64,000 nt of DNA, taken from assembly GCA_965204535.1 (NCBI GenBank), contig OZ241996.1, positions 736,001-800,000 of the forward strand, in the 5' to 3' direction. The notes under the pieces are model-generated. The model had not been told where the DNA came from. It made no database searches and was given only the letters and a program-made list of their open reading frames with translations. Position numbers and translations under genes: made by a program. The DNA is from a bacterium. GTDB taxonomy: Bacteria; UBA8248. Below, in pieces: positions 1,446-46,036 of this stretch (its first letter is position 1; each line of letters opens with the position of its first letter).

Positions 1446-1634
1446 AAGGCCCCCAAGCCGAACGAAGACTCCCCTGAACAACCGGACCGCCGTCTTTCCC
1501 GCCGGCGGCGGCTCTGCGCCACCGGGAGGCCGAGGCCGGCCGGGAGGGGGCGGCGGAGGGGAGCCGGGAGGGAGTCTTCTCGCGTTCGTGGCTCGCCTCC
1601 GCCGCCATCATCCACCCACCCAAGGAGGCGCGCG

Positions 1635-1931: not shown

Positions 1932-2025
1932 GGAAGTCCCCCCCGGAAGGACTTCCGTCCGCAAGACGTCTGGCCGGACCGGCGCCGGCCGCACGGATTC
2001 CATCCACCCCAGGGAGGGAGGCGGG

Positions 2026-2832: not shown

Positions 2833-3574
2833 GTGCTTGCACCGGCTCGCCGCCTGCACGTGCAGCCGGTAGTACGTACTGCCGTCAGCTCGCCGGCGGG
2901 GGGCAGACCCGGCCGGGGGGAGGGTTTGACGACCGCCCTGCTGCGCAGCCGGCCCGCCGTCGGCATCGGCCCCGAACGCGCCACCGCGCGAGCCGCCACT
3001 CGATAACCCGTGCCGGGGAGTCGCCGGCCGGCCTCGCCTCCGCCGCTCGCCGGATGCGCATCGCCGTCTCGAATCCGTCCGGGTTCCTTCTCGCCCGGAG
3101 CGGGGGGAAGGCCACCCCGCTGCGCCGCCAGCCGAACCCGGGCGCGCCGTGCAGGACGGCAGGCAGGGAGCCCGGCAGCGAGGCCGGATACGACCACACG
3201 GGGCGGCCGCGACCCGGCAGAGCAACCCCGCCACCGGTAACGTCGCCATCGTGACATCGCCGTCCCTGCCGCCTCGGTCGCCGACAACCCGGCATCGGAA
3301 GCCCCGTCGCTCGATACGCCTCCGTTCGCCCAAGCCCCATCCATCTGAATCCTGGACCGCGCGCCGGCCCGGGTGGGCTTTCGCTTCCGTCCGTCTCCGG
3401 AGCTACCCGGTCGAAACAGAGGCCGCTCACGCTCCGTGGGCGGTCATCACCGGACGTGAACCTTCCCGGGGGAGAGGTGGAGCGAAGCGGGGAGCCGGGC
3501 AAAGGCCCGGCAGGGGAGAGGGAGACGGTCTCCAGCTCCCGCTGCCGGCGACAACCCCGATAGGAGGCTTGGCC

Positions 3575-3706
3575 ATGTACGAGAACGACTTCGACGTCGA
3601 TGTTCCCACCACGGACGAACTGCTCGCAGAACTCGGACTCGACGCGTACACGATCCGCAAGTTGCGCGCCGAGGCGGAAGGCGAGGAGGAGTTTTGTAGC
3701 GTGTAG
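3575..3706 (+). CDS. Small acidic protein (43 aa)
   Basis: AGGAGG RBS then MYENDFDVDVPTTDELLAELGLD...; lies directly before ssb. Confidence 0.5.
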   Translation: MYENDFDVDVPTTDELLAELGLDAYTIRKLRAEAEGEEEFCSV

Positions 3707-3784
3707 GGCGAACCGGGGGGGTAGAGAGAAAGGCTCTCTCCCTCCTGTCACTTTTTCTCACTCACACCACGAAGGAGAATCATC

Positions 3785-4225
3785 ATGGCATTCGGACTCA
3801 ACAGAGCGGAACTGATCGGGCGCCTCGGCGCCGACGTCACCGTCAACCATCTCGCGAGCGGCGGTCGCGTCGCGAATCTTTCCATCGCGACCGACGAGGG
3901 CTACGTCGACAAGCAGTCCGGCGAGCGGGTGGACAAGACCGAGTGGCACCGGGTCGTGACCTTCCAGCCCGGCCTGGTGGATATGTTCGAAAAGCACGCG
4001 AAGAAGGGCCGCCTGATCTACGTCGCGGGCAAGCTCCAGACCCGCCGCTGGAAGAAGGACGGGGAAGACTCGGACCGGTTCTCGACCGAGATCCTCATCG
4101 CGCCGGGCGGACGCGTGCAGTTCCTCGACAAGGTGAACGGGAACGGCAATGGCAACGGTAACGGCGCGCACGCCGAGACGGCGGCGGTGGCGGCAGGCGT
4201 AGCCGGGGACGACATCCCGTTCTAG
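3785..4225 (+). CDS. ssb: Single-stranded DNA-binding protein (mobile-element type)
   Basis: NRAELIGRLG, TEWHRVV and GKLQTRRW motifs; DDIPF tail. Confidence 0.95.
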   Translation: MAFGLNRAELIGRLGADVTVNHLASGGRVANLSIATDEGYVDKQSGERVDKTEWHRVVTFQPGLVDMFEKHAKKGRLIYVAGKLQTRRWKKDGEDSDRFSTEILIAPGGRVQFLDKVNGNGNGNGNGAHAETAAVAAGVAGDDIPF

Positions 4226-4233
4226 GCTCACCA

Positions 4234-4269
4234 GGGGTCGGCGCTTCGGCGTCGGCCCCTTTTCTTTTG
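4234..4269 (+). terminator. Intrinsic terminator after ssb
   Basis: GGGGTCGGCG-CTTCGG-CGTCGGCCCC stem-loop followed by a T-rich tract. Confidence 0.8.
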
Positions 4270-4369
4270 CTCCTTATCCAGAGAAGGTCCGCTCTGTCGG
4301 CTCTTCTCTAATCGGGACGAGCAAGTCAAGTTCCTCTGCCCTGGTTTTTCCGGATCTTTCCGCCTTGGC

Positions 4370-4555
4370 TTTAGACGATGCTCCATGGGGGTCTCGCTTC
4401 TCTACGTGATCGGCTCCCGGTCCGGGGCCGTCAACAGGATGGGGTCGGAGAACGAGGTGGAACAATCTCTCATACGCCCTCGCACCGTCACCGACGGAGC
4501 GGAACTGAGCCGACAGCGAACTCACCTCGTCCCTCGTCCCCACGGGAGCATCCTC
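4370..4555 (-). ncRNA. Predicted bridge/seek RNA of the IS110 element (ends approximate)
   Basis: Segments 4507-4516 and 4467-4473 match the flanking target; segments 4438-4445 and 4397-4404 match the element ends; stem CGAGGTG/CACCTCG encloses the target pair. Confidence 0.8.
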
Positions 4556-4611
4556 TGCCATAGCGGAAGCTACTGTAATTTTCGGATTCTTCTCCTTTTG
4601 GATTCCCGATG

Positions 4612-5652
4612 TCAGGAGGCTACGTCATCCACGCCGTCGCGTTTCCAGCGGAACTCACTGCCGTCCATCCATATGCGGTGCATAATGACGCCGAGCCGGC
4701 GGGCGAGCGCAACCTTCGCGCGCGCCTTGCCGCGACGCTTCGCCACACCCATCGCCCAGGCTTTCAGCCACGACCACCGCGTCGTGCGCCCGAGCAAGGC
4801 GTTGGCGGCTTCGTAGAGCGCCGCGCGCATCATCGCGTCGCCGCACTTGGAGATTCTTCCCGTTCGGTCGACCTCTCCGGATTGCCATTTGCGAGGCACA
4901 AGCCCGAAGTGCGCGCCCACCGAGCGCGAGCGCGCAAAACGCGACGGCACGTCGACGCTCGCCCGGAAGGTCAGCGCCGTCACCGGACCCACGCCGGGGA
5001 CCGTCATCAGGCGACGGCAGACCGGGTCGACGCGCACCGCCTCCAGCATCATCCTGTGCAGCCGGACGTATTCCGCCAGCAACGCAGAGCGAGCCCGCAG
5101 CATCGGCGCCACCAGGCGCGCCAACTCCGGGCGATCCGCGACCAGACCCCCTACCCGCGCCTCCAGCCCGCGGCGGGAGACCTTGCCCATCTTCAGTCCG
5201 AAGTTGCGCAACGTGCCCCGGATGTGGGCCTCGGCGTCGCACAACTGCTTCAGCATGAACCTGCGGTTGGCGAGGAGCATGCGTTTCTCCTGGCTCGACA
5301 CCGTCTTCACGTGCACCGGGCGAATCAGGTTCGCGCGAACCAGCTGGGCGATCCCGCGCGCGTCGTCGCGGTCGCTCTTGTTCACCGTGGCCGAGAGCAC
5401 CGCCTTCAACTGCCGCGTCTCGGCGCAAACCACCGGGAGCCCGGCCTCGGCCAGGCCGTCATGGAGCCACTGCGACAGCGGCCCCGCCTCGAGGCAGATG
5501 CGCTTCACGCCGAAGTCCAGCCCGGTGAAGAACGCCGCGAGGGCCGCGGGTTCGCTCGCGACCTTCGCCTCCCGGACGATCCCGCCGTCCACGTCCACCA
5601 CGCACACACTCGTCCACTCCAACGACACGTCGAGTCCTGCAAAGTAGTTCAT
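4612..5652 (-). CDS. IS110-family DEDD recombinase/transposase
   Basis: MNYFAGLDVS, CLEAG, KSDRDDA (DEDD), PGVG and QSGE serine motif; likely start at 5652 after an AGGAGGAG RBS. Confidence 0.95.
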   Translation of the reverse strand: MNYFAGLDVSLEWTSVCVVDVDGGIVREAKVASEPAALAAFFTGLDFGVKRICLEAGPLSQWLHDGLAEAGLPVVCAETRQLKAVLSATVNKSDRDDARGIAQLVRANLIRPVHVKTVSSQEKRMLLANRRFMLKQLCDAEAHIRGTLRNFGLKMGKVSRRGLEARVGGLVADRPELARLVAPMLRARSALLAEYVRLHRMMLEAVRVDPVCRRLMTVPGVGPVTALTFRASVDVPSRFARSRSVGAHFGLVPRKWQSGEVDRTGRISKCGDAMMRAALYEAANALLGRTTRWSWLKAWAMGVAKRRGKARAKVALARRLGVIMHRIWMDGSEFRWKRDGVDDVAS

Positions 5653-6058
5653 GGCTGCTCCTCCTGCGGGCGAGAGACACCGGAGCCATCCCGGCCTCGC
5701 CTCGATCATATGACAGAGGAACATCCGCTACACGCGGTAGTTCGAGGGCCAACCCGATTACCCCATCTCTCATCTACCGGGAACACCCGGTAAATCCTCC
5801 GGTCCGTGAACGATGAACCATGTTCACGGAAGTCGGCATGCGCCTGTAATCATTCCCATGCTCCAGATAGTGGCTCGGTCCACCCCCCGCTGCGGGAATT
5901 TCGGGCCGGAAAAGACGGCCCGAAATGACCCTTTCCGCAGCATGAGAGATTGTTTCCCGATGAGCTTCGCCTTCATCGTGAAACACCAAAGGCTCTTGTG
6001 TCCCGGTGGCGGTACTACCCTCTCTCTCTTAGCGTCCTCATTTTAGCACGAACGCCGA

Positions 6059-6195
6059 GCGAATAAAGGGTGGCCGCAGGCGGCCATCATTTGCCGGTGC
6101 CCCCCAAAAAACGTCGAGCGGCGAAAAACAGGAGCGCCGCTCTATGAACCGTGTTTTTCGGGAACCCCCCGGAAAATGACAAGCCCTTGATTCGC
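6059..6195 (+). promoter_or_regulatory. Long imperfect hairpin, candidate Frpo/ssi-like single-strand promoter
   Basis: Nested pairings GCGAATAAAGGG/CCCTTGATTCGC, TCATTTGCCGG/CCGGAAAATGA, AAAAAC/GTTTTT, GAGCGGCG/CGCCGCTC. Confidence 0.5.
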
Positions 6196-6292
6196 CCGCC
6201 TACGGGCATCGGTAACACCGCCCGATGCCCTTACGTGCTGAAAATGGGGCGCTAAGAAGCGCATCCGTTAACTCTCTACGAAGGAGAAAGGC

Positions 6293-6667
6293 ATGGAAAC
6301 CACCGTGGTGAACTTGAACGACTACGTTGCGCCTCAATTCGGAGGCGGATTGCTGGTCAGGATCGACCGCATGACGAAGTGGGGAAACCCCTTCCGCATC
6401 GGCAAGGACGGCGAGCGCGCCGAGGTGATCGAGAAATACCGGCGATGGCTCTGGGAAAGAATCCGGCGCGAGGAGCAGGACCTCTACGAACTCGCCGACC
6501 TGCAAGGCTGCGAGCTCGGCTGCCACTGCCATCCCCTTCCGTGCCACGGCGACGTACTCGCACGCGCCGCCGAGTGGGCCGCCAGGTATCTCGACGAGAT
6601 GCCGAAAGAAGTGGGGCGCAACGAGCGTGGCTACGCTCTTCCCGAATTCAACCATCCCCTCGCTTGA
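6293..6667 (+). CDS. DUF4326 domain protein
   Basis: IDRxTKWGNPFRIG and LGCHCHPLPCHGDVL motifs. Confidence 0.85.
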   Translation: METTVVNLNDYVAPQFGGGLLVRIDRMTKWGNPFRIGKDGERAEVIEKYRRWLWERIRREEQDLYELADLQGCELGCHCHPLPCHGDVLARAAEWAARYLDEMPKEVGRNERGYALPEFNHPLA

Positions 6668-6688
6668 GGACAACGAAAGGAGTGAACG

Positions 6689-7648
6689 ATGACTGCCACC
6701 GCGACACACGACCACAAGGAGAACATCATGCACGAGGTTGACAACATCGAAGCGCAGAACGAATCCTTCACCGCCATGGTATGCGGACAGGCCGCCCTCT
6801 TCGGCGCGACCCCCGGCCCTGACGAGTTCGACAACCGGCCCGTGTGGGGCGAGACCGAGGCCACCGCCGCCGTCCTCAAGGCATTCCACCTGCTCGCAGA
6901 AGCCGCGCCCGACGGAACGCAGCTTGCAGATGAGCGAAGAAACCTCCTGTGGGGCTTCGTCAACACCCTCGACGCCCAGACACAGCGCCTCGACCGCGCC
7001 GCCGACAAACTCATCCCCGGCATCCGTGAACTGCAGCGCGAGCAGGACGGCTCCGAGATCCGCTCCCGCGAACTCGAACTCGCCACCGACCGGGCCGAGA
7101 ATCTCACCGCCCGCCGCGACGCCTTCGAAGGGCTGCGCGACACGGCCGCAGAGGCCTACCGCGTCGAGACCGGCGAGGTATGGCGGCCCCGGCGAGGATC
7201 GCACGTCTCGCAGACCGGCAAGCTCACGTCTGCGGTCATCGAGGCGCGTGATTTCCAGCGCGCGAAAAAGGATCGCGAGAACACGGCCCACCTCCCCCAG
7301 GGAACACTCGTCGCCGTCGCGGGCGGCAAGGAAGCGACCGACGCCGGCAAGATCATCGGCCAGCTCGACAAGCTAAAAGCCAAGTACGCCGACGTCGTCC
7401 TCGTCCACGGCGGTGGCCCGGGTGCTGAGAAGATAGCGGCGGGATGGGCCGAGCGGAACGGCGTCCACCAGATCGTCTGCAAGCCCGACTGGGACGCGCA
7501 CGGTCGGGCCGCTCCCTTCAGGCGGAACGACGAGCTGCTCGGCCTCCTCCCCAAGGGCTTGATCGCGTTCCCCGGCTCGGGCATCACCGACAACCTCGTC
7601 GACAAGGCCAGAGCGCTCGGCATCCCCGTGCAACGCGTGGCCGCCTGA
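6689..7648 (+). CDS. DUF2493 / YspA-like SLOG-family protein
   Basis: C-terminal VLVHGGGPGAE...PDWDAHGRAAPFRRND...AFPGSG SLOG motifs. Confidence 0.85.
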   Translation: MTATATHDHKENIMHEVDNIEAQNESFTAMVCGQAALFGATPGPDEFDNRPVWGETEATAAVLKAFHLLAEAAPDGTQLADERRNLLWGFVNTLDAQTQRLDRAADKLIPGIRELQREQDGSEIRSRELELATDRAENLTARRDAFEGLRDTAAEAYRVETGEVWRPRRGSHVSQTGKLTSAVIEARDFQRAKKDRENTAHLPQGTLVAVAGGKEATDAGKIIGQLDKLKAKYADVVLVHGGGPGAEKIAAGWAERNGVHQIVCKPDWDAHGRAAPFRRNDELLGLLPKGLIAFPGSGITDNLVDKARALGIPVQRVAA

Positions 7649-7683
7649 TGCGAACACTCCTCGGGTCGCGTCGTCGCCGCCCG

Positions 7684-9465
7684 GAGACTGTGAAAGTATT
7701 CCCACGATTCTGGTGGGTGACGCTGGCGAGCGATGCCCGGGTTGTCTGTACATGCTATCTTTACCGGTGAGTGAGATAACCACATAAAGGGTCACCACCA
7801 TGTCCGAGAGACGTTATCAGGAGGTGCAGTCCCGAAGCCAGATGATGCTGCTTCCGCCGTGTCTGGACGACTACGTGTCCGAGCACAATGCGGTGCGCGC
7901 GATCGATGCGTTCGTCGGCACGCTGGACCTGGAGGCGCTGGGGTTCGCGCATGCCGAAGCGAACTGCGGCGCCGGTCAGCCGGCTTTCGACCCGGCGCTG
8001 CTGCTGAAGCTGTATCTGTACGGCTACCAGCACCGGGTACGGAGTTCGCGCCGTCTCGAAGCGGAGACGCGGCGCAATCTGGAAGTGATCTGGCTGTGCC
8101 AGGGTGCGACGCCGAGCTACAAGACGATTGCGGATTTTCGCAAGAACAATGTGGCTGCGCTGCAGGAGGCCAACCGGGAGTTCGTGCTGCTGTGCCGCGA
8201 ACTCTCGCTGCTGGGCGGCAGCCGGGTGGCGGTCGACGGGACTTTTTTGAAGGCCGATGCGAACCTGGACAGCTTCCAAACCAAGCGGTCCCTGGCAAGG
8301 GACCTGAGGCGTTTGGAGAAGAGGATTGCGGCGTATCACCGGCAGTTGGACGAGGCGGATGCGCGCGGGGAGGAGTGTGGGGACGGTTCGGAGGATCCGG
8401 ACCTGCCGGTGAAGCTCAAGGCCTTGATCGAGAGGCAACAAAAGAAGAAGGCACTGCAAGAGCATTTGCAGGAAAGCGGAGAGCGTCAGGTATCGGGGGT
8501 CGATGCAGATGCTCGACTTCTGAGGAACGGCGATATAATGGTGGGCGGATACAACTGCCAGATCGCGGTGGACGACAAGCACAAGCTGATTGTCGCGGAG
8601 GATGTGGTGCAGGACGGCAATGACTCCGCTCAGTTGGAGCCGATGATGACGAAAGCCGGCGAAGCCATGGGCAGCGAACGCCTGGTCGGCCTGGCGGATT
8701 CGGGCTACTTCAACGGCGCACAGTTGAAGAGTTGCGAAGACAAGGGAATGGAGGTGTATGTTCCGATACCGAACCAGACGGCCCGCAAGGGCAAGGACGG
8801 ACGATTCGGCAGCGATGAATTCCGTTACGATGCGCAGGATGACACGTATGTCTGTCCGGCCGGAGAGCGTCTGGTTCGAGGCGGCACGACCACCGTCAGG
8901 GGCAGGCTGTATTACTTTTATCGCGGGACGGCGGCGGTTTGCCGGGACTGTTCGTTGTCGGGCCGATGCCTGACAAAGTCGAGATCGACGCGCAGGATAC
9001 AACGCTGGGAGCATGAGGACGTGGTGGACCGGCATCGCAAGAAGATGAACGCCCGTGTGCCATTGATGCGCGGGCGAAGCACACTCGTCGAACATCCATT
9101 CGGTACGATCAAGCGCTGGGCGGGGATGGATCATTTTGTGATGCGCGGACTCGGCAAATGCCGCGGCGAATTCAGCCTGATGACGCTGGGTTACAACTTC
9201 AAGCGGGTCATGCGTGTGCTGGGCGGAGCTGCATTTGTGGAGCATTGTCTGCAAAAACAGCGGTTGGGGACGAATGGCGTGTGAACTTGAAGCCGATTCT
9301 TCGAGGACTTGACCGCGACCCCGAGCTGACCGGCCGCCGAGACGTTTCTCTCCCGGCTCTGCGGTGTTGTTGCTCCCGAAGTTGAAGACAGTGTCCGGCC
9401 ATCGGGCTGCAAGCGTAAGCGAGCCCTGTTCCGGAGACTGTGAAATCCAATACTCTCACAGTCTC
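7684..9465 (+). mobile_element. IS1182-family element with 9-bp target duplication
   Basis: IRs GAGACTGTGAAAGTATT / AATACTCTCACAGTCTC; flanking CGCCGCCCG at 7675-7683 and 9466-9474. Confidence 0.9.
7800..9284 (+). CDS. IS1182-family DDE transposase
   Basis: LLKLYLYGY..SSRRLE, AVDGT, LADSGY, YVCPAG, VEHPFGTIK motifs. Confidence 0.95.
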   Translation: MSERRYQEVQSRSQMMLLPPCLDDYVSEHNAVRAIDAFVGTLDLEALGFAHAEANCGAGQPAFDPALLLKLYLYGYQHRVRSSRRLEAETRRNLEVIWLCQGATPSYKTIADFRKNNVAALQEANREFVLLCRELSLLGGSRVAVDGTFLKADANLDSFQTKRSLARDLRRLEKRIAAYHRQLDEADARGEECGDGSEDPDLPVKLKALIERQQKKKALQEHLQESGERQVSGVDADARLLRNGDIMVGGYNCQIAVDDKHKLIVAEDVVQDGNDSAQLEPMMTKAGEAMGSERLVGLADSGYFNGAQLKSCEDKGMEVYVPIPNQTARKGKDGRFGSDEFRYDAQDDTYVCPAGERLVRGGTTTVRGRLYYFYRGTAAVCRDCSLSGRCLTKSRSTRRIQRWEHEDVVDRHRKKMNARVPLMRGRSTLVEHPFGTIKRWAGMDHFVMRGLGKCRGEFSLMTLGYNFKRVMRVLGGAAFVEHCLQKQRLGTNGV

Positions 9466-9832
9466 CGCCGCCCGGCGGCGCGGCCCGTCGCTTCCCGTGT
9501 CGTTCGTCTGCTTGTGATGTAAAGCGCAAGCTGCAGCGCCTTGTGCGCCCGCTGCTTGTAAATCCAGGCGCAAGCTCCGGCACCCTCACTCCCTCTTGCC
9601 ACTCGCTCTGTCCGCTCAAGCGCCGCGGCGGCTCCCGCTCGCCAGTCTCTCCGGCGCCGGTTCCCCCATCTCTCGTTCTCACGAATTCGGCAATCTGACG
9701 CCCTTCGGCGCTTCGGGTTTCACACCGGACGCATCGCTGATGCTGGTGTCGCGTGGGCTGCGAATGACTGCGATCTCCAACACCTGGCTTTTACGGTTCA
9801 TCCCCCCGCGCACCCCCGTCGTGCCGAAACAA

Positions 9833-9991
9833 GTAATACCAATCTGGTATCACGCTATCTCTTTGAAATCCCTGCGCTTAAAAATGGCGTATGCTCATTG
9901 TAATACGATGTAATACGGGGGTTTTCTGCAAGATACCAGATTGGTAGTACCCGGAGGTGCGCTGCGCTATGATGGCTACCATTTTGGTAGT
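9833..9991. promoter_or_regulatory. Inverted/direct repeat cluster upstream of the RHH gene (operator or oriT candidate)
   Basis: Perfect 15-bp IR TACCAATCTGGTATC (9837-9851) / GATACCAGATTGGTA (9932-9946); TGTAATACG twice between them; CTACCATTTTGGTAG palindrome downstream. Confidence 0.5.
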
Positions 9992-10121
9992 TCATGAAAC
10001 GGCGTCGCGGGTATGATTTTTGGGAGCTCGGCGGATGCGTTTGGTGCAAGAAATGAGAATTTTTGCGGCCGTTTTGCGACTAGAACGGATGAAAATCTTG
10101 TTGATAGGAGCGGCGAAACGA

Positions 10122-10412
10122 ATGGTTCAGACAATACAGAAGAACATCAGAGTCACGCCCGAACAGTGGAAACGAATTGAAAATGAGGCCGAAAAGCGCG
10201 AAATGTCGCCCAACCGGCTGGTAGTAGAGTTCGTGATGGAAGCCCTGGAGCGCCGCGAATGGCCCCACACAGAGGCGGAAATCCACCTGCTTCGCTCCGC
10301 CATGTTCACCACGCAGGCCATCATCCGCGACATGGAGAAGGCGGGACGAGACGAAGAAATCAAGCAAATCAGCCGGAATATCTCTGAAGTTGCGCCTGAA
10401 TTGCTAGGCTAA
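10122..10412 (+). CDS. Ribbon-helix-helix-like DNA-binding protein
   Basis: KNIRVTPEQWKRIENEAEKREMSPNRLVVEFV fits a strand-helix-helix pattern; GGAG RBS. Confidence 0.65.
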   Translation: MVQTIQKNIRVTPEQWKRIENEAEKREMSPNRLVVEFVMEALERREWPHTEAEIHLLRSAMFTTQAIIRDMEKAGRDEEIKQISRNISEVAPELLG

Positions 10413-11184
10413 TCGGAGAAGGGCCCGTGTGATTGGGCAGATTTGGCAAGTGAAGATGCGTAGGTAAAACCTCCGATGTCGGCAAGGACAAACACCAGCT
10501 AGGAAACGTGGATCATCTGGAAAGAATTTTCCTCTATGAGAAATTCGCGCCGAATAGCCATCGAATCGGCGACATCAGCGAAAATATCGCTACAGATATG
10601 TTCAGACTGACACCTCATCCTGCTCACTATGCATTTACCAAGACCGGTGAATAGATTTGTATTAAGTTGATACGAAATGATCGAGTGATGCTTTTTTGAT
10701 AAGAATCGAAACATTTACTCAACTAACACTTGGCCTAGAACTGTTCGATTGAAGTCCTTTTGGAAAGTTTTGGCATCAGGCGGAAATCGGGCAAAATGCT
10801 CAATAGTAGTCTGTCTATCTCGGGCTAAGGAGTATCTTGTTCAAGAATTCTTTGCCCTTTTAACAATGGAATATGCGAGATTCACGAGTTATACAATCAA
10901 GTAGTAGCTGGCAGAGGTTCCATGCTGAAATGTTCTGCTAATGGTTCAGGCATGTTAGTGTTCCGATGCATGCCGCTCGGCACGATATCTCCCTGCGACC
11001 GTGTGATACGGGGGGCAGTTTGCACTCAAGTAAAACGGATCGCGCACACGCAAACATCAACGAACGCGTAGGTAGCGAGGGTCGTCTCCGTAAATTATGC
11101 CTAGAATGTTGCGCGGGTCGGGGTGGTTTTGAAACCAATTGAATCCCGAAGGGCTCCCAATGCTCTCAACACAAGCCAAAAAGG

Positions 11185-11700
11185 ATGAAGATAATGGGCC
11201 GTGAGTTCTGGTGGCAAGTAGCTGCAAACATAGTCGGTGGACTTATACTGATAGCTATGGGGTGGTTTGCAAGAGAAATAAAGTGGAGAGAAATCTATGT
11301 GAGATTAACGAGTAAAAAAGGGCGAGAAAGAGCTAAAGGAATATGGGAGACAACAAAAGGACTAGGCATCCTCATAGGAATCTTGATAGGACTGTCAATC
11401 ATGTATAACAAAGTGGAACAACTCCAGAACGGCGTGATGGTTATATGCAAAAGCAACGAATGTGCAGAAGAAGAAATCCTGAGGGCGAAGATATGCAAAA
11501 CAGATGCGATGGCGTATGGAACAGAGATCACAGCGAATAGCTCAAGGAAAAAATTACCACAACCAGGAAGGGCAGTAAAAAACAAGTTTGAAACATGCAT
11601 ATTGAAAGAAGGACTAAATACAAGAAGATGTAGTCTGGATGAGCAGGGCTGCATCTACTTTCCACTACAACGTGGAGGGTACGGAGGAGGTCTGTTCTAG
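11185..11700 (+). CDS. Low-GC hypothetical membrane protein with Cys-rich C-terminal domain
   Basis: Two TM-like segments, six Cys in the C-terminal half, A-rich codons. Confidence 0.65.
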   Translation: MKIMGREFWWQVAANIVGGLILIAMGWFAREIKWREIYVRLTSKKGRERAKGIWETTKGLGILIGILIGLSIMYNKVEQLQNGVMVICKSNECAEEEILRAKICKTDAMAYGTEITANSSRKKLPQPGRAVKNKFETCILKEGLNTRRCSLDEQGCIYFPLQRGGYGGGLF

Positions 11701-11734
11701 TCATATTAGAGCAACGGTTTCTCAAGATAGAGTG

Positions 11735-11920
11735 GAGTTACTGTCAAATTTGCTGGATGGCTGTCGTGAATCCATCGGCCTTCCTGTCCATCTTTCCTTC
11801 AACCACCGCATCTATGAACTTCACATCGGCGAGCATGTCAGCCAGTAGATGGAGGCCGGGCAATCGGTCCTCCGCTAAGCACTCAACGACCCTGGGATAC
11901 TTCGCCTCCCAGGTGGCGAG
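11735..11920 (-). pseudogene. IS256 3'-end relic
   Basis: GAGTTACTGTCAAAT identical to 17329-17343; 25 bp at 11893-11917 identical to 17676-17700. Confidence 0.8.
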
Positions 11921-12127
11921 AAATTGATTGTGAGCACCTAAATGTCCTTGATCGGCATCTTAGGCTAGTCGAGCAGATTGAGCCGTTCTTCCTGTCGGAG
12001 TTGTCCGAAGACTATTCGGGAGGAGACAAACTGGCACTTCAGGCGCTGGAATGCTTCGACCTCACTTGTATGCAGAATTAGTGGGACGCGGAGCTGCATC
12101 TGATAGTCGCTGTATCAAGTGGCTTGT

Positions 12128-14238
12128 TCACCGAAGTGCCAAAAAACAGCAGAACTTGACCTTTTCTCCTGACCCACAGGGGCACATTTCATAGGGTTTT
12201 AAGTTATTGGCTTTGCATAGATCATCCAGCAGAAATCGGCTTCGCTTTCGCCAGCTAGCCACTCGTTCTTCCCCGTTACGAAGGTCGCCCCATACGGCAG
12301 GTCGAAGACGCGGGCCAGAGGCTCGCGTCATAAACAGCCCTGAGAGTTGATCCCGAGCTTGTTCAAGAACGGACATCGAGAGCGCTTGACGCAGTCCGGC
12401 ATTCACCGCCGTAATTACCTGCCCCCCTCGTTTGTCGCAAGGCGCTCTGCTACCTCGCGACGAAAACTCTTCCCACTGGCCGATTCCCTAAAGTGCAATA
12501 CTCCACGTAGCAGTTCTGGCTGCTCCTCGATCAAAGCACCCAGATCCGAATTAAACCGACCGGTCAAGACGTAGCTTGCCGCGTCGTCGGCCCACTCCGT
12601 CCCGGCAGAAGCGGAGAAAGCTACGCTCGCCAGCTTTTCACACCCCAAGAGTAGCCGCGTAGCGCTGGCGTTGGTTTGTTGACATATAACTCCCTTGCCT
12701 ACTACTCCAGCCAAGCGCAATACGGGAAAGACCAACCATCGTGGGACGGCGCCTCGCGGTGTTCCCCCGCTAATGCCCAAGAGTCGACGAATGGAGGGAT
12801 GCATCATGGCACTGCGAGTTCTGTCCGACACTTGATCTGTCTTTAGCGCATGCGTCAGATCGACTGAAGACGACTCAAGCATGTCCATCTGTCTTTCCGC
12901 TATTTCTTCTTTGCCCGGTATGGGCGTCAGATGCCGACGAATTCTCTCGGCGACCGTCATCTCCTCGAACGACTCTGTGGAACTAGCCCTAGAGCCCAAC
13001 CTGATTTCCTTTATATGGCCTACCAGAGCGCCCGGTTCCGGAAAGACCACGACGGGTTCTGGCGGTGGGATGACCAGCCGTATCGCCCCGGCTTCGACGA
13101 ACTCCCAAAACCAAGCTGAACCCAGCAGGTTGTGCAACTTTCCCAAGTGGCCGATCGACAGGCAAATCACATCGAAACAGACCAAACCGACGACGATATC
13201 GTGCAATGCCGAGTAGTCGTGAAGAACCACTTCGCCATCTACATAGCCTTCACCGATGATAAGTTCCCGCGTTCCCGAACTGTTCTCCGCGGTCACCGTT
13301 TGCGACGTGGTGAACTTACCCGGAGGTAGTAACTCTCCAATGAAGCAGATGCTCTCACCGTTGCGTTCCTCAATCCCGGTATCCCCCGGAGTTGATGTGG
13401 TCGGACCTGGCTGAGGCCTGATGTCCGCAACGGCTTCAAGTGTCAACAATGCGCTTCGATGGTCCGGCGGGTCGGCGACATAACTGATACGTCTCACACC
13501 TAGAGGAATTTCGGACGATCCTTCCGGAGTGACGATGAAATGCGGACCCGTTCCAAATAGCGGATGGGTTGTCGAACTGTGTTGAAGGGCGGAAATCACG
13601 TGTTGGTCTTGGAAACCATAGCCTAGAAACAGAACCGTTGAATTGGAGAGGACCGAGTGAAGAGAATTCAGGAACGGGATGTCAATTTGAATATCGTCGT
13701 AGTCCTGTTTGGAGAACACCATGGTCTCGACCGCGCTGATCGAACCATGCAGCTTGCATATGAACGCCCTGCCTTCGGCTAGGAGTTGCCGCATACGTTC
13801 GGCGTCGGACCGTTGAACGGTCTCCCGTCCGATTAGGTGATGCTCGAGGGATTCGTCAACGTTGGTGGTCACGATGCCCGTCGGCTTGACCTGCTCCAAT
13901 GCATGCAGCATTCGTCTATAAACAGGGGTTGGTTGCCGATACGAAAAAGCGTCAAGGAGACAAGAGAAATAGAGCTCTGAATCGCATGTCCGCATCTCCT
14001 GAAAAAGCTTTGGGTATGCTTCCGCCGCCAATAGAGCCGAGGTAGTGTTCTTGGAGTAGGTGCTCACCTCTCTTGTAAACCGCCTGTGCATCTGTTCGGC
14101 GAGCTCGCGCCACAATGGGTAGCCCATCCACGCACTAGTGCCAGCACCCAGCCAGACAACTAGAGGACCGCCGCGACTCCGAATCGCCGAATCGAGGGCG
14201 TTTAGGGCATTGAACGTCTCTTGATCTTCGCAGAACAT
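12128..14238 (-). CDS. SIR2-like protein with C-terminal SEC-C motif, split by a frameshift in a G6 run
   Basis: GAGTS, TTNVD, KLHGS, LFLGYGFQD motifs; ORF stops at 12415 and the downstream frame ends in CPCGSGEKVKFCC; one extra G at 12422-12427 joins them. Confidence 0.8.
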
Positions 14239-14860
14239 GGTTAATTCCTTGGACTATCTGTAGGCGCTTGCGATCATCGGGTTTTGCTCACACGATCTCC
14301 CCTCAATAATTTTATCACTAGATATGAGAGTTCTGGAACCATGGATGAAGGGCGAAGCGGAGCGAAACCCGGAGGCCATGGTTCCTATGTTTCAGGTCCT
14401 AATAAGTTATGCTGCCTGATCCTGTTGTAGATATGCTGTTTTCGCTCCACGAAGAGCCATAGCCCAAAGCCGTACATTGCGTCCACGCAGTCAGGATACC
14501 CGCCGGGGAGAATAGCGGGCCCGCCAGCGGGCCAGGACCGAGCCTGAGCGCTTCCTGGGGTCCCTAGTCTCGACTACGGCGAGAAATTCAGTGGTTCCCA
14601 CGTTCGGACTGTACCAGCAACGAAGTGCATTGGCAGCGGAGGTGTATTTCGGTTCGATTGCAAGATGGAAACTGGATATCAGCAATAAGGGGGCCGTGCA
14701 TAGCTTCTATAAATTTCGGGAGACGTAAACCGTGCAAATTCGAAAAATACTAGGTCAAAAGCGCTTCAACAATACCCTTAGCTACAGCCATAGCACAAGA
14801 ATCCTCTTGAAATTGAGAAAAAGAAGCTGGGGATCTATTCATTCTTGAGCGATATATTTT

Positions 14861-16203
14861 AGGTCAAGTCCTGTAGATGCTGGATAATTTCTTAGGGCGC
14901 ATATCGGCCGAGGGCTGCCTGATGTCGTTTTCCGCCTCGTAGTTCTGGTCCAGTTCCCTTCTGAGGGCGTCCATCTGGCGGCGCTCGAAGCCGGTGACCC
15001 TGAGCGCCCGCCATCGCTCCGAAGCCCGGATCATGGCGGCGAACATGAGCTTGAGCACCGGCTTTTCCCCGAAGGCGTTGGGAATGATCTTCATCCGCCT
15101 CCGCTCCTCGACGAACAGGCGCTCGAGCAGGTTCGTGGTGCGCACGGCGCGGCGGTGGTTGACGGGCGCCCGCAGATGCGCGATGCAGGCTTCGAAGTCG
15201 TCGCGGAAGCACGCCACGGCGCCGGGCAGTTCGGACTCGTAGTCCCTGACTATCCCTTCGGCCAGTTCCCGGGCGATGGCGCGCGAGGTTCCTCATCCGG
15301 TGCGCCAGGCAGCGTTGCCGCTCCGAGCGCGGGAAGCAGGTCTCGATCGCCTTGACGATGCCGGGCGCTCCGTCGCTGACCACCAGCAAAGGGTCGCCCA
15401 GGCCGCGGGCGCGCATGTCGTGGAAGAACGCGCTCACCGTCTCGGCGTCTTCTTTCGAACCCGCCATCAGGTGCAGGAGAACCTTCGCGCCGTTCGCCGT
15501 GAATCCCCAGGCCGCCAGAACCGGCTCGCGCCTGCTCCCCGGGCGGATACGTTCCGCAATCCCGTCGATGAACAGATAGACGACCTCGTGCTCGCCCAGG
15601 TCCCTTGACGCGAACTCCTGGTAGTCTTCCCAGAGGCGTTCGCCGAGTTCGGAGACCGCCGTGCGCGAGAGCAGAAGACGACCGCTCTCGTCGGTGAAGA
15701 CGTCTTCGATGTCGCGCACCGACAGGCCGCGCGCCAGAAGCTCCACCGCCAGCCCCTCGAGCGCCTCGGTGCGCCCCTTGAGGCCCTCGCGTATCTCGGA
15801 GCGGAACCCTTCCTCGCGCCCGGCAATCTGAGGCGCCGCGTACTCGATGAACCCTTCGGCCGTCTTCAGACGACCCGGGCGGTGACCGTTGCGGTAGCCC
15901 TGGCCGGGCTTCGCGCCGTGTTCGTAGTACTCCCGGCCCAAAGCGTCGTGGCTCTCCGCCTCCAGCGCCTCTTCCACGATGAGCCGCGTGGCGAGCTTCA
16001 CCAGATCGGCTCGCGCATCGGGACTCGACAGACGGCCTTCGATCAAGTCGGACAGGGATTGGCGGGTATGTATCGATGCCTGTATTCTCTTCTTCATGGG
16101 GTTGCCTCCTCGGTGGGACGCCGGCGCTCACCGGCACGGGTTCATGGTTCCTCCGCCGAGGATGCACCCCTCCAAAGTTTCCAGCAAGTTTAGGACTTAA
16201 CCC
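14861..16203 (-). mobile_element. IS256-family element with frameshifted transposase (14864-16096)
   Basis: IRs GGTCAAGTCCTGTAGATGCTGGA vs GGTTAAGTCCTAAACTTGCTGGA; YRNG, LFIDG, VVSDG, QRCLAH and RTTNLLER motifs split over two frames near 15280. Confidence 0.85.
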
Positions 16204-16635: not shown

Positions 16636-17322
16636 ATGAAACTAGGAACAAATGCAATTCAGTTGTTTTTACAATTTTTTGGTTGGTTTATTTCCACCGA
16701 TCTTATTTGGAATTTTTCAGGGTTTAAAACCAAGCTTAAACTTGCCATACCTCTACTTGAACCTTTCTTTCCAGCCATATCTGTTGCGTTGATTTTTACA
16801 CTTATTGCAATACATTATGGCAAAATTCTCTCGTTGTTTTTTGCTTCAGTAAGATTCCATTCATATTATGAAAAACTACTCGAATGGAGCGATCATGTTA
16901 ACGGAAGAAAACCAAGGGCAGAATCATCTTATTCTTTGTCATACGATGCCTCAAAACAAATAATAGACGTATGTCAAAGATTCAATATCCCTTACCCGAC
17001 ACCCATAGAAAAAGTGGATTTTAAAGCAATGTCTTTTTATGGTGATGAAAAAGCGGATGAGGAAAGATTAGAGATATGGGGTATCTTTGCTGACGATATT
17101 GCACGTTGCGCCAGCAACAAGAATTTGCATAAAGCACAAGAAATTTTAATGAATGAAGATGAGAGAGCAAAAGCAGCTTTGACTAGAAAAAAGCGACTTA
17201 ATCACCTTACTATATGTATCGTTTTGTTAACCATTTTGTTAGTCATTCTGATCAGTATGATCATTAAAAAATGGGATGTTTGGGTATATTTGTTTAATCT
17301 AACATTTAAGGCGGCAAGGTAA
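16636..17322 (+). CDS. Low-GC hypothetical membrane protein between two IS256 copies
   Basis: 228-aa AT-rich ORF with N- and C-terminal TM segments. Confidence 0.7.
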   Translation: MKLGTNAIQLFLQFFGWFISTDLIWNFSGFKTKLKLAIPLLEPFFPAISVALIFTLIAIHYGKILSLFFASVRFHSYYEKLLEWSDHVNGRKPRAESSYSLSYDASKQIIDVCQRFNIPYPTPIEKVDFKAMSFYGDEKADEERLEIWGIFADDIARCASNKNLHKAQEILMNEDERAKAALTRKKRLNHLTICIVLLTILLVILISMIIKKWDVWVYLFNLTFKAAR

Positions 17323-18741: not shown

Positions 18742-18920
18742 GCAACGCCGTTGGAATTCACCAAACGCCTCTATACGGGCGTCAAAACAGGATTTGAGCA
18801 AGAATACCCCGCCTTCTTCAATTCAGCACATACACGAGAACTGAACGTATGTTCTTGACACTTATCCCTTTAGCTTGGTAGCAATGCCTCTTGATGAAAT
18901 TTCCAAGCGGGAGGGTTTTA

Positions 18921-19406
18921 ATGCGTTATCTATTTATTGTTTTATGTCTGATTCTTCTTCCCACCCCTGCATTTCCAAATGAGCAATTGGATATAGAAGC
19001 AGTCGAGAAACATTTGCAGCTTGAAAAAGAAGCTCTTCAAATTTACAAGCGAGCAAAAAAACGCGCAGAAAATGCGGTTAAAAAATCTTCACTAGGACGC
19101 GAAATTTCACGGCTTCTTGAGGTGCCGAATGATGAAACAAAAAAAATCACGAAAGGCAAACCTGAGCTGAATTTTGACAAATTACGCAAATCACTACGTA
19201 ATATTATGAAAGTTCATGGGGTCGAAAAAAAATTTGCTAAATTTGTTCGTATAATGACATATAAATTCTTTGGCGATGAAATCAGGGAACTAGGTGAAAA
19301 AAAACGAAACGCATTATTGCGTATTTATGAACAACTACGGCTCTCAGATATCGAGCAGGAACTGTCATATCTTGAGGCTGAAATGGAGTTTTTAAAAGCT
19401 CGGTGA
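18921..19406 (+). CDS. Hypothetical exported helical protein
   Basis: Signal-peptide-like MRYLFIVLCLILLPTPAFP; GGAGG RBS; low GC. Confidence 0.65.
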   Translation: MRYLFIVLCLILLPTPAFPNEQLDIEAVEKHLQLEKEALQIYKRAKKRAENAVKKSSLGREISRLLEVPNDETKKITKGKPELNFDKLRKSLRNIMKVHGVEKKFAKFVRIMTYKFFGDEIRELGEKKRNALLRIYEQLRLSDIEQELSYLEAEMEFLKAR

Positions 19407-20455: not shown

Positions 20456-21556
20456 TTGCTGATGCTTGCCGAAAAGGTTGTGGAAAAACAGTTGCTTGAT
20501 CAGTTCCTGGAAGCCCTGCAGGGGCTGCCCGGGGTGCAAGCGGAGTTGGGTTCACTTATACAGCCAAGTGGTCCGGATCGAGAGTATGACGCCCGGGTTG
20601 CTCTTAGGGCGGGCGGGAAGGCTGCCACTCTGATGATAGTAGTGAAGAAGACCCTCTATCCTCGTGATGTGCGACAGATGCTTTGGCAGTTCCAGGCTTT
20701 TGCACGTAGATGGCCGCAATCGGCGGAAGCACGGCAAACGTTGTTCTTCTTAGTGGCCCAATCAATTTCACCTGGAGCCAAAGACCTGCTGAGGGACGAG
20801 CGGGTTGGCTACTATGACAGCGGGGGCAGCCTGTTTCTCCCTGCTCACAACATCTACGTTTACGTGGACAAGCCGCTCTCGAAGACCTTGTCGAAATCCA
20901 TTCGCTCCTTGTTTTCGGGTCGACGTGCGCAGGTGCTGCACGCGCTCCTGATGCGGCATGGCGAGTGGTTCGGAGTCAAGGAGGTCGCGGCGCAGGCGCG
21001 GGTCTCGCCCGCGACCGCCTCGCAGGTGCTGACTGAACTTGAGAAATACGATTGGGTAGTGTCGCGAGGGCAGGGACCGACCAAGGAACGCGATCTTCGA
21101 GAGCCTGGCGCCTTGCTGAATGAATGGGCCAGGCAACTGGCGGTGATGCCGCCACTTGCAATGCGGCGTTACTTTGTGCCCTCGGTGCGTGCGGAGGGGC
21201 TGGTTCAGAAGTTCGCCGAGGTCTGTGCCGCCCGAAAGGCTGAATACGCGCTCACTCACGAGGCGGCAGGGCAACGGTACGCCCCCTTTCTATCGACTTT
21301 CTCCCAAGTGCGTAGCCGGATGATGGCTGGCGCCACCGCAGATGGAGTCCTGGGCGCACTCGATGCCCACATCGTAGACCAGGGTGCAAACCTCATGATC
21401 ATCGAAGTTAAGACGTCCGGCGATTTTTTGTTTCGAGAGCTGGTGGATGGAACTTGGCTGGCGAGTCCTATACAAGTCTACCTCGACCTGATTCGCGGTG
21501 AGGGCCGCGCCAAAGAAATGGCGAAGCACCTTCGCCAGGAAAGGCTCGGATTCTAG
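20456..21556 (+). CDS. AbiEi-like antitoxin / transcriptional regulator (type IV TA)
   Basis: Central wHTH (VKEVAAQARVSPATASQVL) and C-terminal ASPIQVYLDL..GRAKE motif. Confidence 0.75.
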   Translation: MLMLAEKVVEKQLLDQFLEALQGLPGVQAELGSLIQPSGPDREYDARVALRAGGKAATLMIVVKKTLYPRDVRQMLWQFQAFARRWPQSAEARQTLFFLVAQSISPGAKDLLRDERVGYYDSGGSLFLPAHNIYVYVDKPLSKTLSKSIRSLFSGRRAQVLHALLMRHGEWFGVKEVAAQARVSPATASQVLTELEKYDWVVSRGQGPTKERDLREPGALLNEWARQLAVMPPLAMRRYFVPSVRAEGLVQKFAEVCAARKAEYALTHEAAGQRYAPFLSTFSQVRSRMMAGATADGVLGALDAHIVDQGANLMIIEVKTSGDFLFRELVDGTWLASPIQVYLDLIRGEGRAKEMAKHLRQERLGF

Positions 21557-22452
21557 TGGCGAAGCCTACGACACTGCACGGCTACACCAATCAGCACACA
21601 GTCGATTGCGAGCGCGTTCTCGTTACCCTGCTGCGCGGATTAGGCCCCTGGAAAGAGTCGGTAATTCTGGTTGGCGGCTTGACGCCGAGATATCTGGTGG
21701 CGGCCAGACCACCGGCAGTGCCGGCGCATGCAGGGACGCTCGACTTGGATGTCGTCATCGACCTGCAAATTCTGGCCGAAACCGAGGCGTATAACACGCT
21801 CGAGGACAACCTGCGAAGAATGGCGTTCGAGCCATTCAAGAACGACAGGGGCCAGAGGTCCTCATGGCGGTGGCAGACCCGCACCGAACATGGCGCGCTG
21901 ATTGAGTTGGAGCTGCTCGCCGACGCGCCTGAGATCGCCGGTGGCAGGGTTCAGCCGCTGCCTACGGAAGGGACCATCTCCGCGCTCAACATTCCGCACT
22001 CGTCCATTGTCTTCGATCTCCACCGGGTCACGGAGATTCAGGCAAAGCTCCTTAACAGCGAAGCCATCGCCGTCGAAAAAGTCAAGCACGCAAATCTGGT
22101 GAGTTTCACTTGCCTGAAGGCGTTCGCCTTCGATCAGCGCTTCGAGCGCAAGGACGCGCATGACCTGGTCTATTGCATCGAGCACGCGCCCGAGGGTATC
22201 GACAACGTTGCGGAGATGTTCCGCAACACTTTGGAAGGCAGCCACGGCGCAGTGATCCGGGACTCTCTGGCAATTCTTCGCAATCGCTTCGCACAAGACG
22301 ACGAAGTCGAGGGCTATCGCAAGGACGGTCCCGTGGAGGTGGCCCGCTTCGAACTGGGTGAGGGTGACGAAGCCGACCTGCGCGAAGCTCGCATGCTGCG
22401 CCAACGCGAAGTCAGCAATGTGATCGAGCAGCTCCTGGAACGTATCGGTTAG
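21556..22452 (+). CDS. AbiEii-like nucleotidyltransferase toxin
   Basis: LVGG, GTLDLD and K..A...R.ERKDAHD motifs; start overlaps the upstream stop (TAGTG). Confidence 0.75.
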   Translation: MAKPTTLHGYTNQHTVDCERVLVTLLRGLGPWKESVILVGGLTPRYLVAARPPAVPAHAGTLDLDVVIDLQILAETEAYNTLEDNLRRMAFEPFKNDRGQRSSWRWQTRTEHGALIELELLADAPEIAGGRVQPLPTEGTISALNIPHSSIVFDLHRVTEIQAKLLNSEAIAVEKVKHANLVSFTCLKAFAFDQRFERKDAHDLVYCIEHAPEGIDNVAEMFRNTLEGSHGAVIRDSLAILRNRFAQDDEVEGYRKDGPVEVARFELGEGDEADLREARMLRQREVSNVIEQLLERIG

Positions 22453-23170: not shown

Positions 23171-25618
23171 TCAGTCACCTGCCGTACGATTCTTTTCAAC
23201 TCTGCGTAAGCTATCAATGAAGATTTCATTTTTCGTATTGCTTTCCAGTAGCCCCTTCAACGTAGCCCAATATTCGGTTGATACCGAGCAAGCAATCTTC
23301 GAACAAATTTCAAATGCCATCGTCTCTTCCAATTTCTGCCATTTCTCACTCATAATTATCTGAGTTCTGGAAGAATTCAGATCCAAGTCCATGCTTCCAC
23401 AAACATCTACCACTATCAACATTGGGAATGGCCAATTCAGTTTTACCTGATTTTTTTGCATTCTCCACGATTCTGGAAATAGCGTTGTAGGGACTTCAAT
23501 TCCGTGCAACGAAAGCCAAGATTTCGATTTCCAATGACTACTATATAAATTCGACTGCTCTATTATTCCTCCTTCATCTATAGTGATTGATGTCGTAGAC
23601 TCCTTTATTTCATTACTGACCATCCGCAAACTCTTGTCTAAAGAATAATCTTCACCTTCAATCACAATAGACTTGGACGTCATTTCAATACTAGTGGTCG
23701 GCGAGCCATGAGACTCTAATATCGCTACAATGACGGAGCCAACAAATCCTTTTTCTTGATTATCAAAATCTATGTTAAATACTCTAATATTATCATGCTC
23801 ATCCCATGTATGTTCTCTTAGTTGTTCAGCCTTTATTTCCTTAAACGATTTTTCATCTCTTATTTTTTCTTGAGATTCTGTTTCTATTACTATCTTGAAT
23901 GGCGGGTTTGGCAATACGTTTTCAACGGACTTAATGAACTCGTCTTCGCTCAAATTATCCCACGGATTTACGTTTTTTCTGAGGAATAGTTTGGTTGATG
24001 TTCCGGGTATTGTTCGTTGCCCCGGCTTTATCCAAAATATGCTTTCTTGGCCTTCAATAGTAATATTTATCGCGTCACTCGAATCGTGAGGTCCATAAAC
24101 TCTTCGGGTATCTACTACCAATGTATCAGCCACCATAAAGCAAGACAAAATCCCTATGCCAAATCGAGATATTGGCATAAACTTCGCCTTTGCTATTGAC
24201 TTTAGTTCATAAAAATCAGGAGACATATAAAATGACGATCCGACTTTTGAATAGTATGCGTCGATAATATGCTGATCCATTCCAGTCCCATTATCAATTA
24301 TCTCAAGTACGTCTCCATCGGTTTCAGTTGAATATTTTATGTGTATCTCTGGTTCGTATAAATTGCCCCAACTCTTTTCCATAGCGCTTCGCAGCAAACA
24401 AGCGTCGATCGAATTCTGCAATAACTCTCTAAGAGGAACTTCTGGGTCACCATATAATTTCGTGCCCATTAATAAATCTATAACTTGATTTTTACTCAAG
24501 TTGAACTGTGCTTTTTTATAGAGATAAAGCGGCTGACCATTAATACCTTTCTTTGTTTCAATTTTTGATCTATCCACCTTAAAGGGAATACTAGTTGTAT
24601 GTTCTTTTCCTTGGTTTCTATCGAAATCGTTTATTGATGAAATAATATTATTGCAGGCGCTTAACTCCCGATCGATAATGTCGCAAAAATCGTGAATTGA
24701 TGCTTCTATAGCAGGATGTATGCACTTGGCATGAAATTGAATAGATTCCTCACTGATAGACCATGCTTCAATAGCTCTGTGTTTATTCCATTCGTTGATC
24801 GATATCGGATTCCTTACAAACAGATGCGAGAATAAGACTTCCGGTGTTCTCTTTGCGTCGAAATCAAGAATATCTGCAAGCCTCAATATCACGGCGATTA
24901 GTTGCAAATTAGCATATATACCGTCCCCACAAAGATAGTTTCTGTCGAGTTCCAAAAGTGAGAGAGCGTCATTACTGTGACTGAAACAAATTTCTGCAAA
25001 ATCGACAGTTAAATCGACGTCTCTATACCTTATTTTTTCATTCCAATGTTTTTCAATAATGTCCCTTGCTCGTTCGGCATGTGTAGCTCTAATGTAATCG
25101 GAAACAATGTAATTTTTCAGCAAATCCGCTTCGCTATTTTTCCCCTGCGCGATGTACGATTCAATCTGCGAGTTAAGCTCCGGCTTTGACAAATAGAATC
25201 TTTGAAATTTACTGAACTCATCGTTTTCTTCATCTGATAGCGATGGAGATATGTCCCAAACCTTTCTCCATGAAGTTACATCCTTTTCTTTAGCCGCCAT
25301 TCCAATATCATGAAAAAATGCACTAAGTATCAACAACATCAATTCCGGGACTGAGAGTTCTTTAATTTTGCCCGGAGAAAGTAGCTTCTCCATTAACTTT
25401 AAAACACGGAATAGATGGTCGCCATCATGGAGAGTAAATTCTCCCATGTGCATTAGAATCGTCTTGGTTTTCTGGTATGCAAAAGACGTTGCTTCATCAA
25501 CGAGAGATAAGACCTGATTGCCAGGAGAATTGCCCTCACATTTTTCCCTTAATGCGCAGTAAATAGCACTCTTGTGTAATCGCTCTTGTGTTTCCGCTTT
25601 CCAGTCATCGCCACTCAT
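23171..25618 (-). CDS. HD-CE-like domain fused to an Hsp90-like GHKL ATPase
   Basis: FTLHDGDH, FFHDIGM and LRLADILD (HD); LYGD..LRELLQNSIDAC, DNGTGM and SRFGIG (GHKL); GGAGG RBS favours the start at 25618. Confidence 0.85.
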   Translation of the reverse strand: MSGDDWKAETQERLHKSAIYCALREKCEGNSPGNQVLSLVDEATSFAYQKTKTILMHMGEFTLHDGDHLFRVLKLMEKLLSPGKIKELSVPELMLLILSAFFHDIGMAAKEKDVTSWRKVWDISPSLSDEENDEFSKFQRFYLSKPELNSQIESYIAQGKNSEADLLKNYIVSDYIRATHAERARDIIEKHWNEKIRYRDVDLTVDFAEICFSHSNDALSLLELDRNYLCGDGIYANLQLIAVILRLADILDFDAKRTPEVLFSHLFVRNPISINEWNKHRAIEAWSISEESIQFHAKCIHPAIEASIHDFCDIIDRELSACNNIISSINDFDRNQGKEHTTSIPFKVDRSKIETKKGINGQPLYLYKKAQFNLSKNQVIDLLMGTKLYGDPEVPLRELLQNSIDACLLRSAMEKSWGNLYEPEIHIKYSTETDGDVLEIIDNGTGMDQHIIDAYYSKVGSSFYMSPDFYELKSIAKAKFMPISRFGIGILSCFMVADTLVVDTRRVYGPHDSSDAINITIEGQESIFWIKPGQRTIPGTSTKLFLRKNVNPWDNLSEDEFIKSVENVLPNPPFKIVIETESQEKIRDEKSFKEIKAEQLREHTWDEHDNIRVFNIDFDNQEKGFVGSVIVAILESHGSPTTSIEMTSKSIVIEGEDYSLDKSLRMVSNEIKESTTSITIDEGGIIEQSNLYSSHWKSKSWLSLHGIEVPTTLFPESWRMQKNQVKLNWPFPMLIVVDVCGSMDLDLNSSRTQIIMSEKWQKLEETMAFEICSKIACSVSTEYWATLKGLLESNTKNEIFIDSLRRVEKNRTAGD

Positions 25619-45821: not shown

Positions 45822-46036
45822 TCAGATAGCCCATCCTGGGGTGGGGGCGTTTTGCAGGGATCAAACACATCGGGAAAAGTGTAATCTTTATGTATGCCCT
45901 CAACAACGGGGTTGATGAAAAAGCCCCCTCCCCAGGGGATAAAGGCAACCCCCCTACCCCCCTTGTCAGGGGGGCAAGAAAAAACAAAAGCACCTCTACC
46001 GGCGGCGGGCGCCGCCTTTTCATACCCCCCTGACAA

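Follow-up and report, generated by a model that had tools for sequence, protein, structure and literature searches.

A truncated member of an apparently undescribed SIR2–SEC-C protein family on a bacterial mobile cassette

The window, a 64,000-nucleotide stretch of a bacterial contig, carries on its minus strand (12,128 to 14,238) a gene that is a one-base-short, truncated member of a conserved family of 703-residue proteins. Family members combine an N-terminal SIR2 domain of the NADase type with an alpha/beta middle domain and a C-terminal SEC-C type zinc-finger motif. Our main observations are this architecture, a conserved Asn/His pair in the SIR2 domain, the lack of a partner gene, a patchy and mobile spread across phyla, and a pair of alleles with six and seven G (G6 and G7). 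SIR2 NADases rank among the major effectors of bacterial immunity, in which systems differ by their sensor. By analogy with these systems, we consider it fairly probable that intact members are single-gene anti-phage sensors that deplete NAD+. The SIR2 effector kind is itself known; the SIR2–middle–SEC-C family is apparently undescribed. The frameshift itself is ordinary, and the family is the part that merits interest, being a partnerless SIR2 protein whose domain in the sensor position matches no family or solved fold in the databases searched.

The frame break and the intact length

As assembled, the gene is a minus-strand ORF of 607 aa (12415..14238) that encodes the SIR2 domain and most of the middle domain, and whose last residues, ATNEGGR, are followed by a premature TAA (12415-12417). 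A run of six G within the Glu-Gly-Gly codons lies at 12422..12427 (minus; C6 on the plus strand). In the other frame, 98 further codons read GGQVITAVNAGL...CPCGSGEKVKFCC up to a stop at 12128. This out-of-frame tail (12128..12424, minus) corresponds to family residues 606-703, which contain the end of the middle domain and the SEC-C motif, and over residues 603-703 of the intact protein of a sister species the tail piece matches at 97 of 101 positions (96%). In that species (congener G002, locus L010) the run is G7 and the product is an intact protein of 703 aa; sequencing run X4 also has G7. The original prediction had placed the break at exactly this homopolymer and had expected about 703 residues after the addition of one G, and both points are confirmed by the sister allele.

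Between the window and L010 alleles we count 8 synonymous and 4 non-synonymous changes, and between the G7-intact and G6-broken proteins 3 amino-acid differences over 606 shared residues. This indicates little decay. With so few changes between the two alleles, the loss of one G in the window copy is recent, as had been proposed.

Domain architecture and comparison with known SIR2 systems

The SIR2 domain spans residues ~1-275 (13414..14238, minus), as supported by Pfam SIR2_2, alignment with DSR2 and ThsA, and Foldseek. SIR2_2 (PF13289) matches residues 122-241 with an E-value of 4.8e-19 and 69 bits, well above the cut-off of 24.5. SIR2 motifs had been noted at the N-terminus, and those present are GAG (31-33), TTNVD (124-128, a TTNxD motif that includes N126), KLHG (162-165, a KxHG motif that includes H164) and FxGY (204-207). 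N126 and H164 occur in 125/125 full-length members (sequences of 680-740 aa) and align with N133 and H171 of DSR2, so that the catalytic Asn/His dyad of DSR2 and ThsA (N112/H152) is found in the family. As described in PMC11263360, N133 and H171 sit in the catalytic pocket of DSR2, and Y134, beside N133, is required for full activity. At the Y134 position, the Tyr is replaced in 124 of the 125 members, by Val, Ile or Ala in 122 of them.

Matches to solved structures were found with the family profile for DSR2, ThsA, KomC and the Sir2 protein of Sir2-HerA, all within the SIR2 domain only. The closest structures by Foldseek are ThsA, DSR2 and KomC, and matches to the PADLOC models LmuA, ThsA, PDC-S25 and Dsr1 are confined to residues ~25-240. 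A CobB-type sirtuin deacylase was also considered. CobB-type sirtuins contain an internal four-Cys zinc ribbon; PF02146 gave no match, with only SIR2_2 scoring, and residues 1-275 contain no conserved Cys, which excludes this class.

The part of the middle domain that is in frame in the window comprises residues 292-607 (12418..13365, minus) of a ~390-aa domain that is predicted to have a mixed alpha/beta structure. The ~400 residues that the original prediction could not assign are a domain with a predicted structure, and Pfam, Foldseek and profile searches found no family or fold assignment for it, nor did its profile match any PDB sequence. For SLOG specifically, there was no Pfam or Foldseek match, and SLOG was absent among the further matches listed. 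Conserved residues include E336, H346, D347, D356, W501, R508, R584 and R593. The domain was compared by structure and profile with folds of the HUP class (TyrRS/TrpRS/CDPS-like) and with PIN/VapC folds, which have an acidic active site. We entertain, as a distinctly speculative reading, that a degenerate HUP core of the class I tRNA-synthetase/cyclodipeptide-synthase-like type underlies the middle domain and makes it a new kind of immune sensor module. Its invariant E336, H346, D347, R508 and R584 would bind a ligand altered in the course of infection (a nucleotide, an adenylate or a tRNA end), and the module would act together with SEC-C to switch on the SIR2 NADase. If so, sensor and executioner would reside in a single polypeptide, making a signalling partner unnecessary. 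A sensor role for this domain would be assigned purely by analogy. Avs5 (SIR2-STAND), in which a STAND P-loop NTPase follows SIR2, was rejected, as 49 middle-domain members gave no NTPase Pfam match and the conserved columns include no Walker A motif.

The SEC-C type C4 zinc-finger motif, C686-x-C688-x8-C697-C698 (12146..12184, minus), has the same spacing as Cys5/7/16/17 of YchJ. All 125 full-length members have C686, C688 and C697, and 123 of them have C698; the family profile matches the YchJ zinc-finger peptide (9l6b_C) with an E-value of 1.9e-4. Pfam SEC-C (PF02810) scores above its cut-off on two homologues (P0099 and P0112), but gives no score on the window tail piece or on L010. The predicted SEC-C ending is therefore upheld by a near-invariant cysteine pattern and by Pfam in relatives, though not by Pfam in the window itself.

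Among known systems, DSR2 of Bacillus subtilis (PDB 8k98, 8wkt) scores best by sequence (E 1.7e-13, profile positions 12-217). It is likewise a single gene with an N-terminal SIR2 domain, and its SIR2 part also matches structurally. However, DSR2 has ~1005 aa and a helical-repeat C-terminal sensor, whereas the family has ~703 aa with an alpha/beta middle domain and SEC-C, and there is no similarity beyond SIR2. Identity with DSR2 was rejected on this length, on the end of the match at DSR2 residue 228, on the alpha/beta model and on the lack of a PDB match for the middle domain. ThsA of type I Thoeris (SIR2-SLOG; PDB 6lhx, 8bto), which also has a SIR2 NADase head followed by an alpha/beta domain, is the top Foldseek match, with a sequence E-value of 1e-10 and a PADLOC ThsA match at residues 25-220 (E 1.8e-15). 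It differs from the family in its SLOG domain, for which the middle domain gave no Pfam or Foldseek match, and in the conserved TIR gene (ThsB) that the family lacks nearby. KomC of Kongming, Sir2 of Sir2-HerA (Nezha), LmuA-SIR2 of Lamassu and PDC-S25 of PADLOC fall into one SIR2 clade with the family, as judged from sequence or fold, but match only residues ~20-246, and the family has no conserved KomAB, HerA or SMC.

Three further proteins share single traits with the family. Sole-Sir2 is a SIR2 protein standing alone, with NADase activity shown for the protein and anti-phage activity for a close homologue; unlike the family, it has about 440 aa and a C-terminal SIR2, and the accessible text on it mentions no SEC-C (10.1101/2024.12.27.630466). 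Rugutis, a lactococcal anti-phage protein, is described as a single-gene defence with a SEC-C type zinc motif, but with the motif at the N-terminus and without SIR2 (PMC11381338), a comparison made by description and not by sequence of the body. YchJ, a redox regulator described in PMC13377102, has the identical C-x-C-x8-C-C spacing, but its motif is N-terminal and it has no SIR2 domain.

Spread, neighbourhoods and possible role of the family

A protein search returned 109 relatives, mostly of 697-720 aa and with the same cysteine motif at the end. Searching with a middle-domain profile built from 49 sequences gave 239 clusters at 50% identity; among the best 150 of these 239, SIR2 was present in 93/93 with a long N-terminus and the SEC-C pattern in 108/110 that reach the C-terminus. 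The family spans at least nine phyla, mostly of uncultured bacteria, with 63 genome loci in Gemmatimonadota, Latescibacterota, Acidobacteriota, Pseudomonadota, Nitrospirota, Thermodesulfobacteriota, Cloacimonadota, Sumerlaeota and Bacteroidota. The gene is intact in 48 of the 63 loci. Of the 15 others, at least two run off the end of their contig and IS transposases disrupt three (L008, L035 and L040); some of the remaining broken loci may be long-read errors. The product of the insertion in L008 (11715-13889, minus) is a 724-aa protein in which a DruA-like domain is fused to an IS4-type transposase, and in L061 (8430-9434) all that is left of the family gene is SIR2 sequence (residues ~8-154), which faces a KAP P-loop NTPase gene.

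No full-length match to the family was found in PADLOC, NCBIfam or PDB, with NCBIfam giving no hit of any length, and no SIR2–SEC-C protein is described in the literature searched; large defence-prediction candidate tables, subscription papers and DefenseFinder could already list the family. Within these limits, the suggestion that the protein is undescribed stands. It had also been suggested to stand alone, which the neighbourhoods bear out. Across the 63 loci the only conserved neighbour is a class II ribonucleotide reductase gene, found in 12 loci of Acidobacteriota. HerA, short pAgo, KomAB and an SMC partner are not conserved in these loci, where HerA-like and SMC-like neighbours occur once each (L016, L031). 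ThsB (TIR) is not conserved in them either, and has no match among 254 neighbouring ORFs of 46 loci.

These 254 ORFs come from a scan of up to three ORFs on each side of the gene, with near-duplicates and several broken or short loci omitted. A PADLOC match lies near the gene in 19 of the 46 neighbourhoods and in none of the other 27. When kinase, methyltransferase, ankyrin and protease-type matches were set aside as generic, a specific defence neighbour remained in 12/46, a raw count rather than an enrichment. Eleven of these are among the 23 loci outside Acidobacteriota and one is among the 23 inside. In L007 the gene lies within a type I restriction-modification (R-M) operon (hsdM-abiEi-GENE-hsdS-hsdR), in L009 and L031 it adjoins hsd operons, and in L016 it is located between CapP-like and HEC-05 genes. 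The sole match on a viral contig (L069) lies directly behind a phage integrase; phage and plasmid collections contained no family match.

In the mechanism that we favour, the SIR2 head would be silent at rest, autoinhibited or dispersed, as suggested by DSR2, ThsA and KomC. The middle domain and zinc finger would recognise an infection cue, either a phage protein or a nucleotide, and binding of the cue would oligomerise the SIR2 heads, leading to NAD+ hydrolysis and arrest of the infected cell. In the window copy, a costly accessory gene may then have been lost recently, much as IS insertions have disrupted it in relatives. The natural G7/G6 matched pair, together with clear catalytic mutants (N126A, H164A), makes the family directly testable.

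The principal alternative, which we regard as unlikely but worth weighing, is that family members consume NAD in a role unrelated to phage, either in stress, redox or nucleotide-pool sensing via the zinc finger and middle domain or in ADP-ribosylation of a host target, with vertical inheritance in Acidobacteriota and spread on mobile elements elsewhere. Our phylogeny, which was rooted at the midpoint only, contains deep Acidobacteriota-only clades as well as one clade (starred) that mixes Gemmatimonadota, Latescibacterota and L010. The family gene lies directly downstream of nrdJ, the class II ribonucleotide reductase gene, in one clade of Acidobacteriota (L024, L025, L041, L043, L049, L050, L053, L054, L055, L057, L058 and L066). 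These lineage-restricted clades, one of them fixed behind nrdJ, look like long vertical retention, and the mostly housekeeping neighbours in Acidobacteriota, the C4 motif shared with the redox regulator YchJ and the altered DSR2 Tyr position also fit such a role. However, the nine nrdJ-linked loci present in the tree form a single clade, in which the link was kept over substantial divergence; the link is thus one event and not a set of independent repeats, and other loci have differing neighbours. The SIR2 type is also that of defence NADases, without the CobB-type internal zinc ribbon, and the insertions within R-M operons and a prophage, the patchy presence and the repeated inactivation are at odds with a non-phage role.

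The G run and the surroundings of the gene

It had further been proposed that the gene is phase-variable. That the G run is a working phase switch, with a toxic defence gene on (G7) or off (G6) within a population, seems to us improbable. Both alleles do occur in near-identical cassettes, the piece downstream of the break shows no decay, and a 7-base run switches reversibly in glpK of M. tuberculosis, as described in 10.1101/717272. However, among 12 homologues examined, the run is G7 in one and the codons of the other 11 give 2-5 G, so that the repeat tract is not conserved as would be expected of a contingency gene. G7/C7 runs are also common in this genome (795). The run is thus an accident of the Glu-Gly-Gly codons. 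Nor do both alleles occur together in any run (contigs only), and truncation points in the family are scattered: 64 of 289 sequences are truncated, at residues 246-676, with a mild cluster of seven at 603-610. Reversion of the window allele by chance is possible, since runs of 7 bases can switch back and minority alleles do not show in contigs.

The sequence removed by the frameshift consists of helices, the last predicted core strand (648-652), the invariant W663 and R664, and the SEC-C motif, and the strand falls inside the span that aligns to Rossmann-like folds. One G short, the gene no longer encodes the last 96 residues, among them this strand and the invariant zinc finger, so the G6 product is probably inactive. 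That broken alleles persist also makes it somewhat less likely that the C-terminus is a simple inhibitor, without which a toxic NADase would be set free. A 92-aa ORF begins at a GTG 8 nt past the stop, and P0003 likewise ends near residue 610, which would fit a functional natural short variant of 607 aa or two pieces acting as a split or frameshifted protein. We give this very little weight, given the near-invariant SEC-C cysteines and W663/R664, the in-frame sister allele and the predicted strand in the tail. A stop common to homologues, which the original prediction had named as evidence against an interrupted gene, was looked for and is not shared.

Homopolymers are the usual error site of long reads, and mis-sequencing had been raised as a further option. 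Contigs from runs X1 and X2 (one sample) and X3 (a second sample of the same study; depth 32.6) match the G6 of the window, with no other letters, and a G7 contig is absent from all runs of that study, as judged from contigs, which drop minority alleles. In a control of 162 orthologous ORFs (15 of 16 retrieved regions used), only 1 of 78 G/C runs of at least six differs in length between this genome and G002, so that assembly rarely shortens such runs. An error that hides a truly intact gene in this strain is thus highly unlikely, even if X1 and X2, whose library types are absent from the records, may be the assembly's own source. Run X4, from another study, differs from the window by one extra C and 16 substitutions in 2.8 kb; it shares these differences with L010, and the two were counted once.

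The gene lies on a cassette (9471..15288) that it shares with G002 and that contains a NikA-like gene (10020-10412), a 171-aa gene (11185-11700), the SIR2 gene and the start of an IS256-type element. The cassette occupies a different chromosomal place in G002 and is 98.8% (~99%) identical, where core genes reach 94-96% and the core DNA on its flanks ~94%; we read this as a sign of recent transfer. Of 22 congeners (genomes 79-100% complete), only one has the gene. In the window, it is part of a ~30-kb island with IS elements, integrases, an AbiE-like pair and an HD-CE/HSP90 gene.

Several other features of the window were observed. At 20456-22452 (plus), a gene for an HTH protein precedes a nucleotidyltransferase-like ORF that matches AbiEii weakly (E 0.008); judging from sequence, the two are likely an AbiE-type toxin-antitoxin pair. 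A low-GC gene of 898 aa (23171-25867, minus) encodes HD-CE and HSP90-like ATPase domains, an architecture of the conflict-system type, and is also found in G002 at 96%. Five cargo-like ORFs without Pfam match (26432-27271, minus; 16636-17322, plus; 18891-19406, plus; 11185-11700, plus; 51627-52421, minus), several of them in low-GC stretches, are possible further unannotated defence genes. Positions 1-10400 form a multicopy mobile element with ~7-21 genomic matches per 500-bp bin over most of its length, which carries ssb, DUF4326, YAcAr SLOG and NikA-like genes and is interrupted by IS110 and IS1182-like transposases. A 1.5-kb element at ~46000-47560, with more than 15 copies in G002, is probably an IS. 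Elsewhere in the same genome, two ORFs with SIR2-like N-termini, of 1222 aa (G000:C2:1565638-1569303, plus) and 1273 aa (C2:1685420-1689238, minus), are possibly of the SIR2-STAND or DSR1 type.
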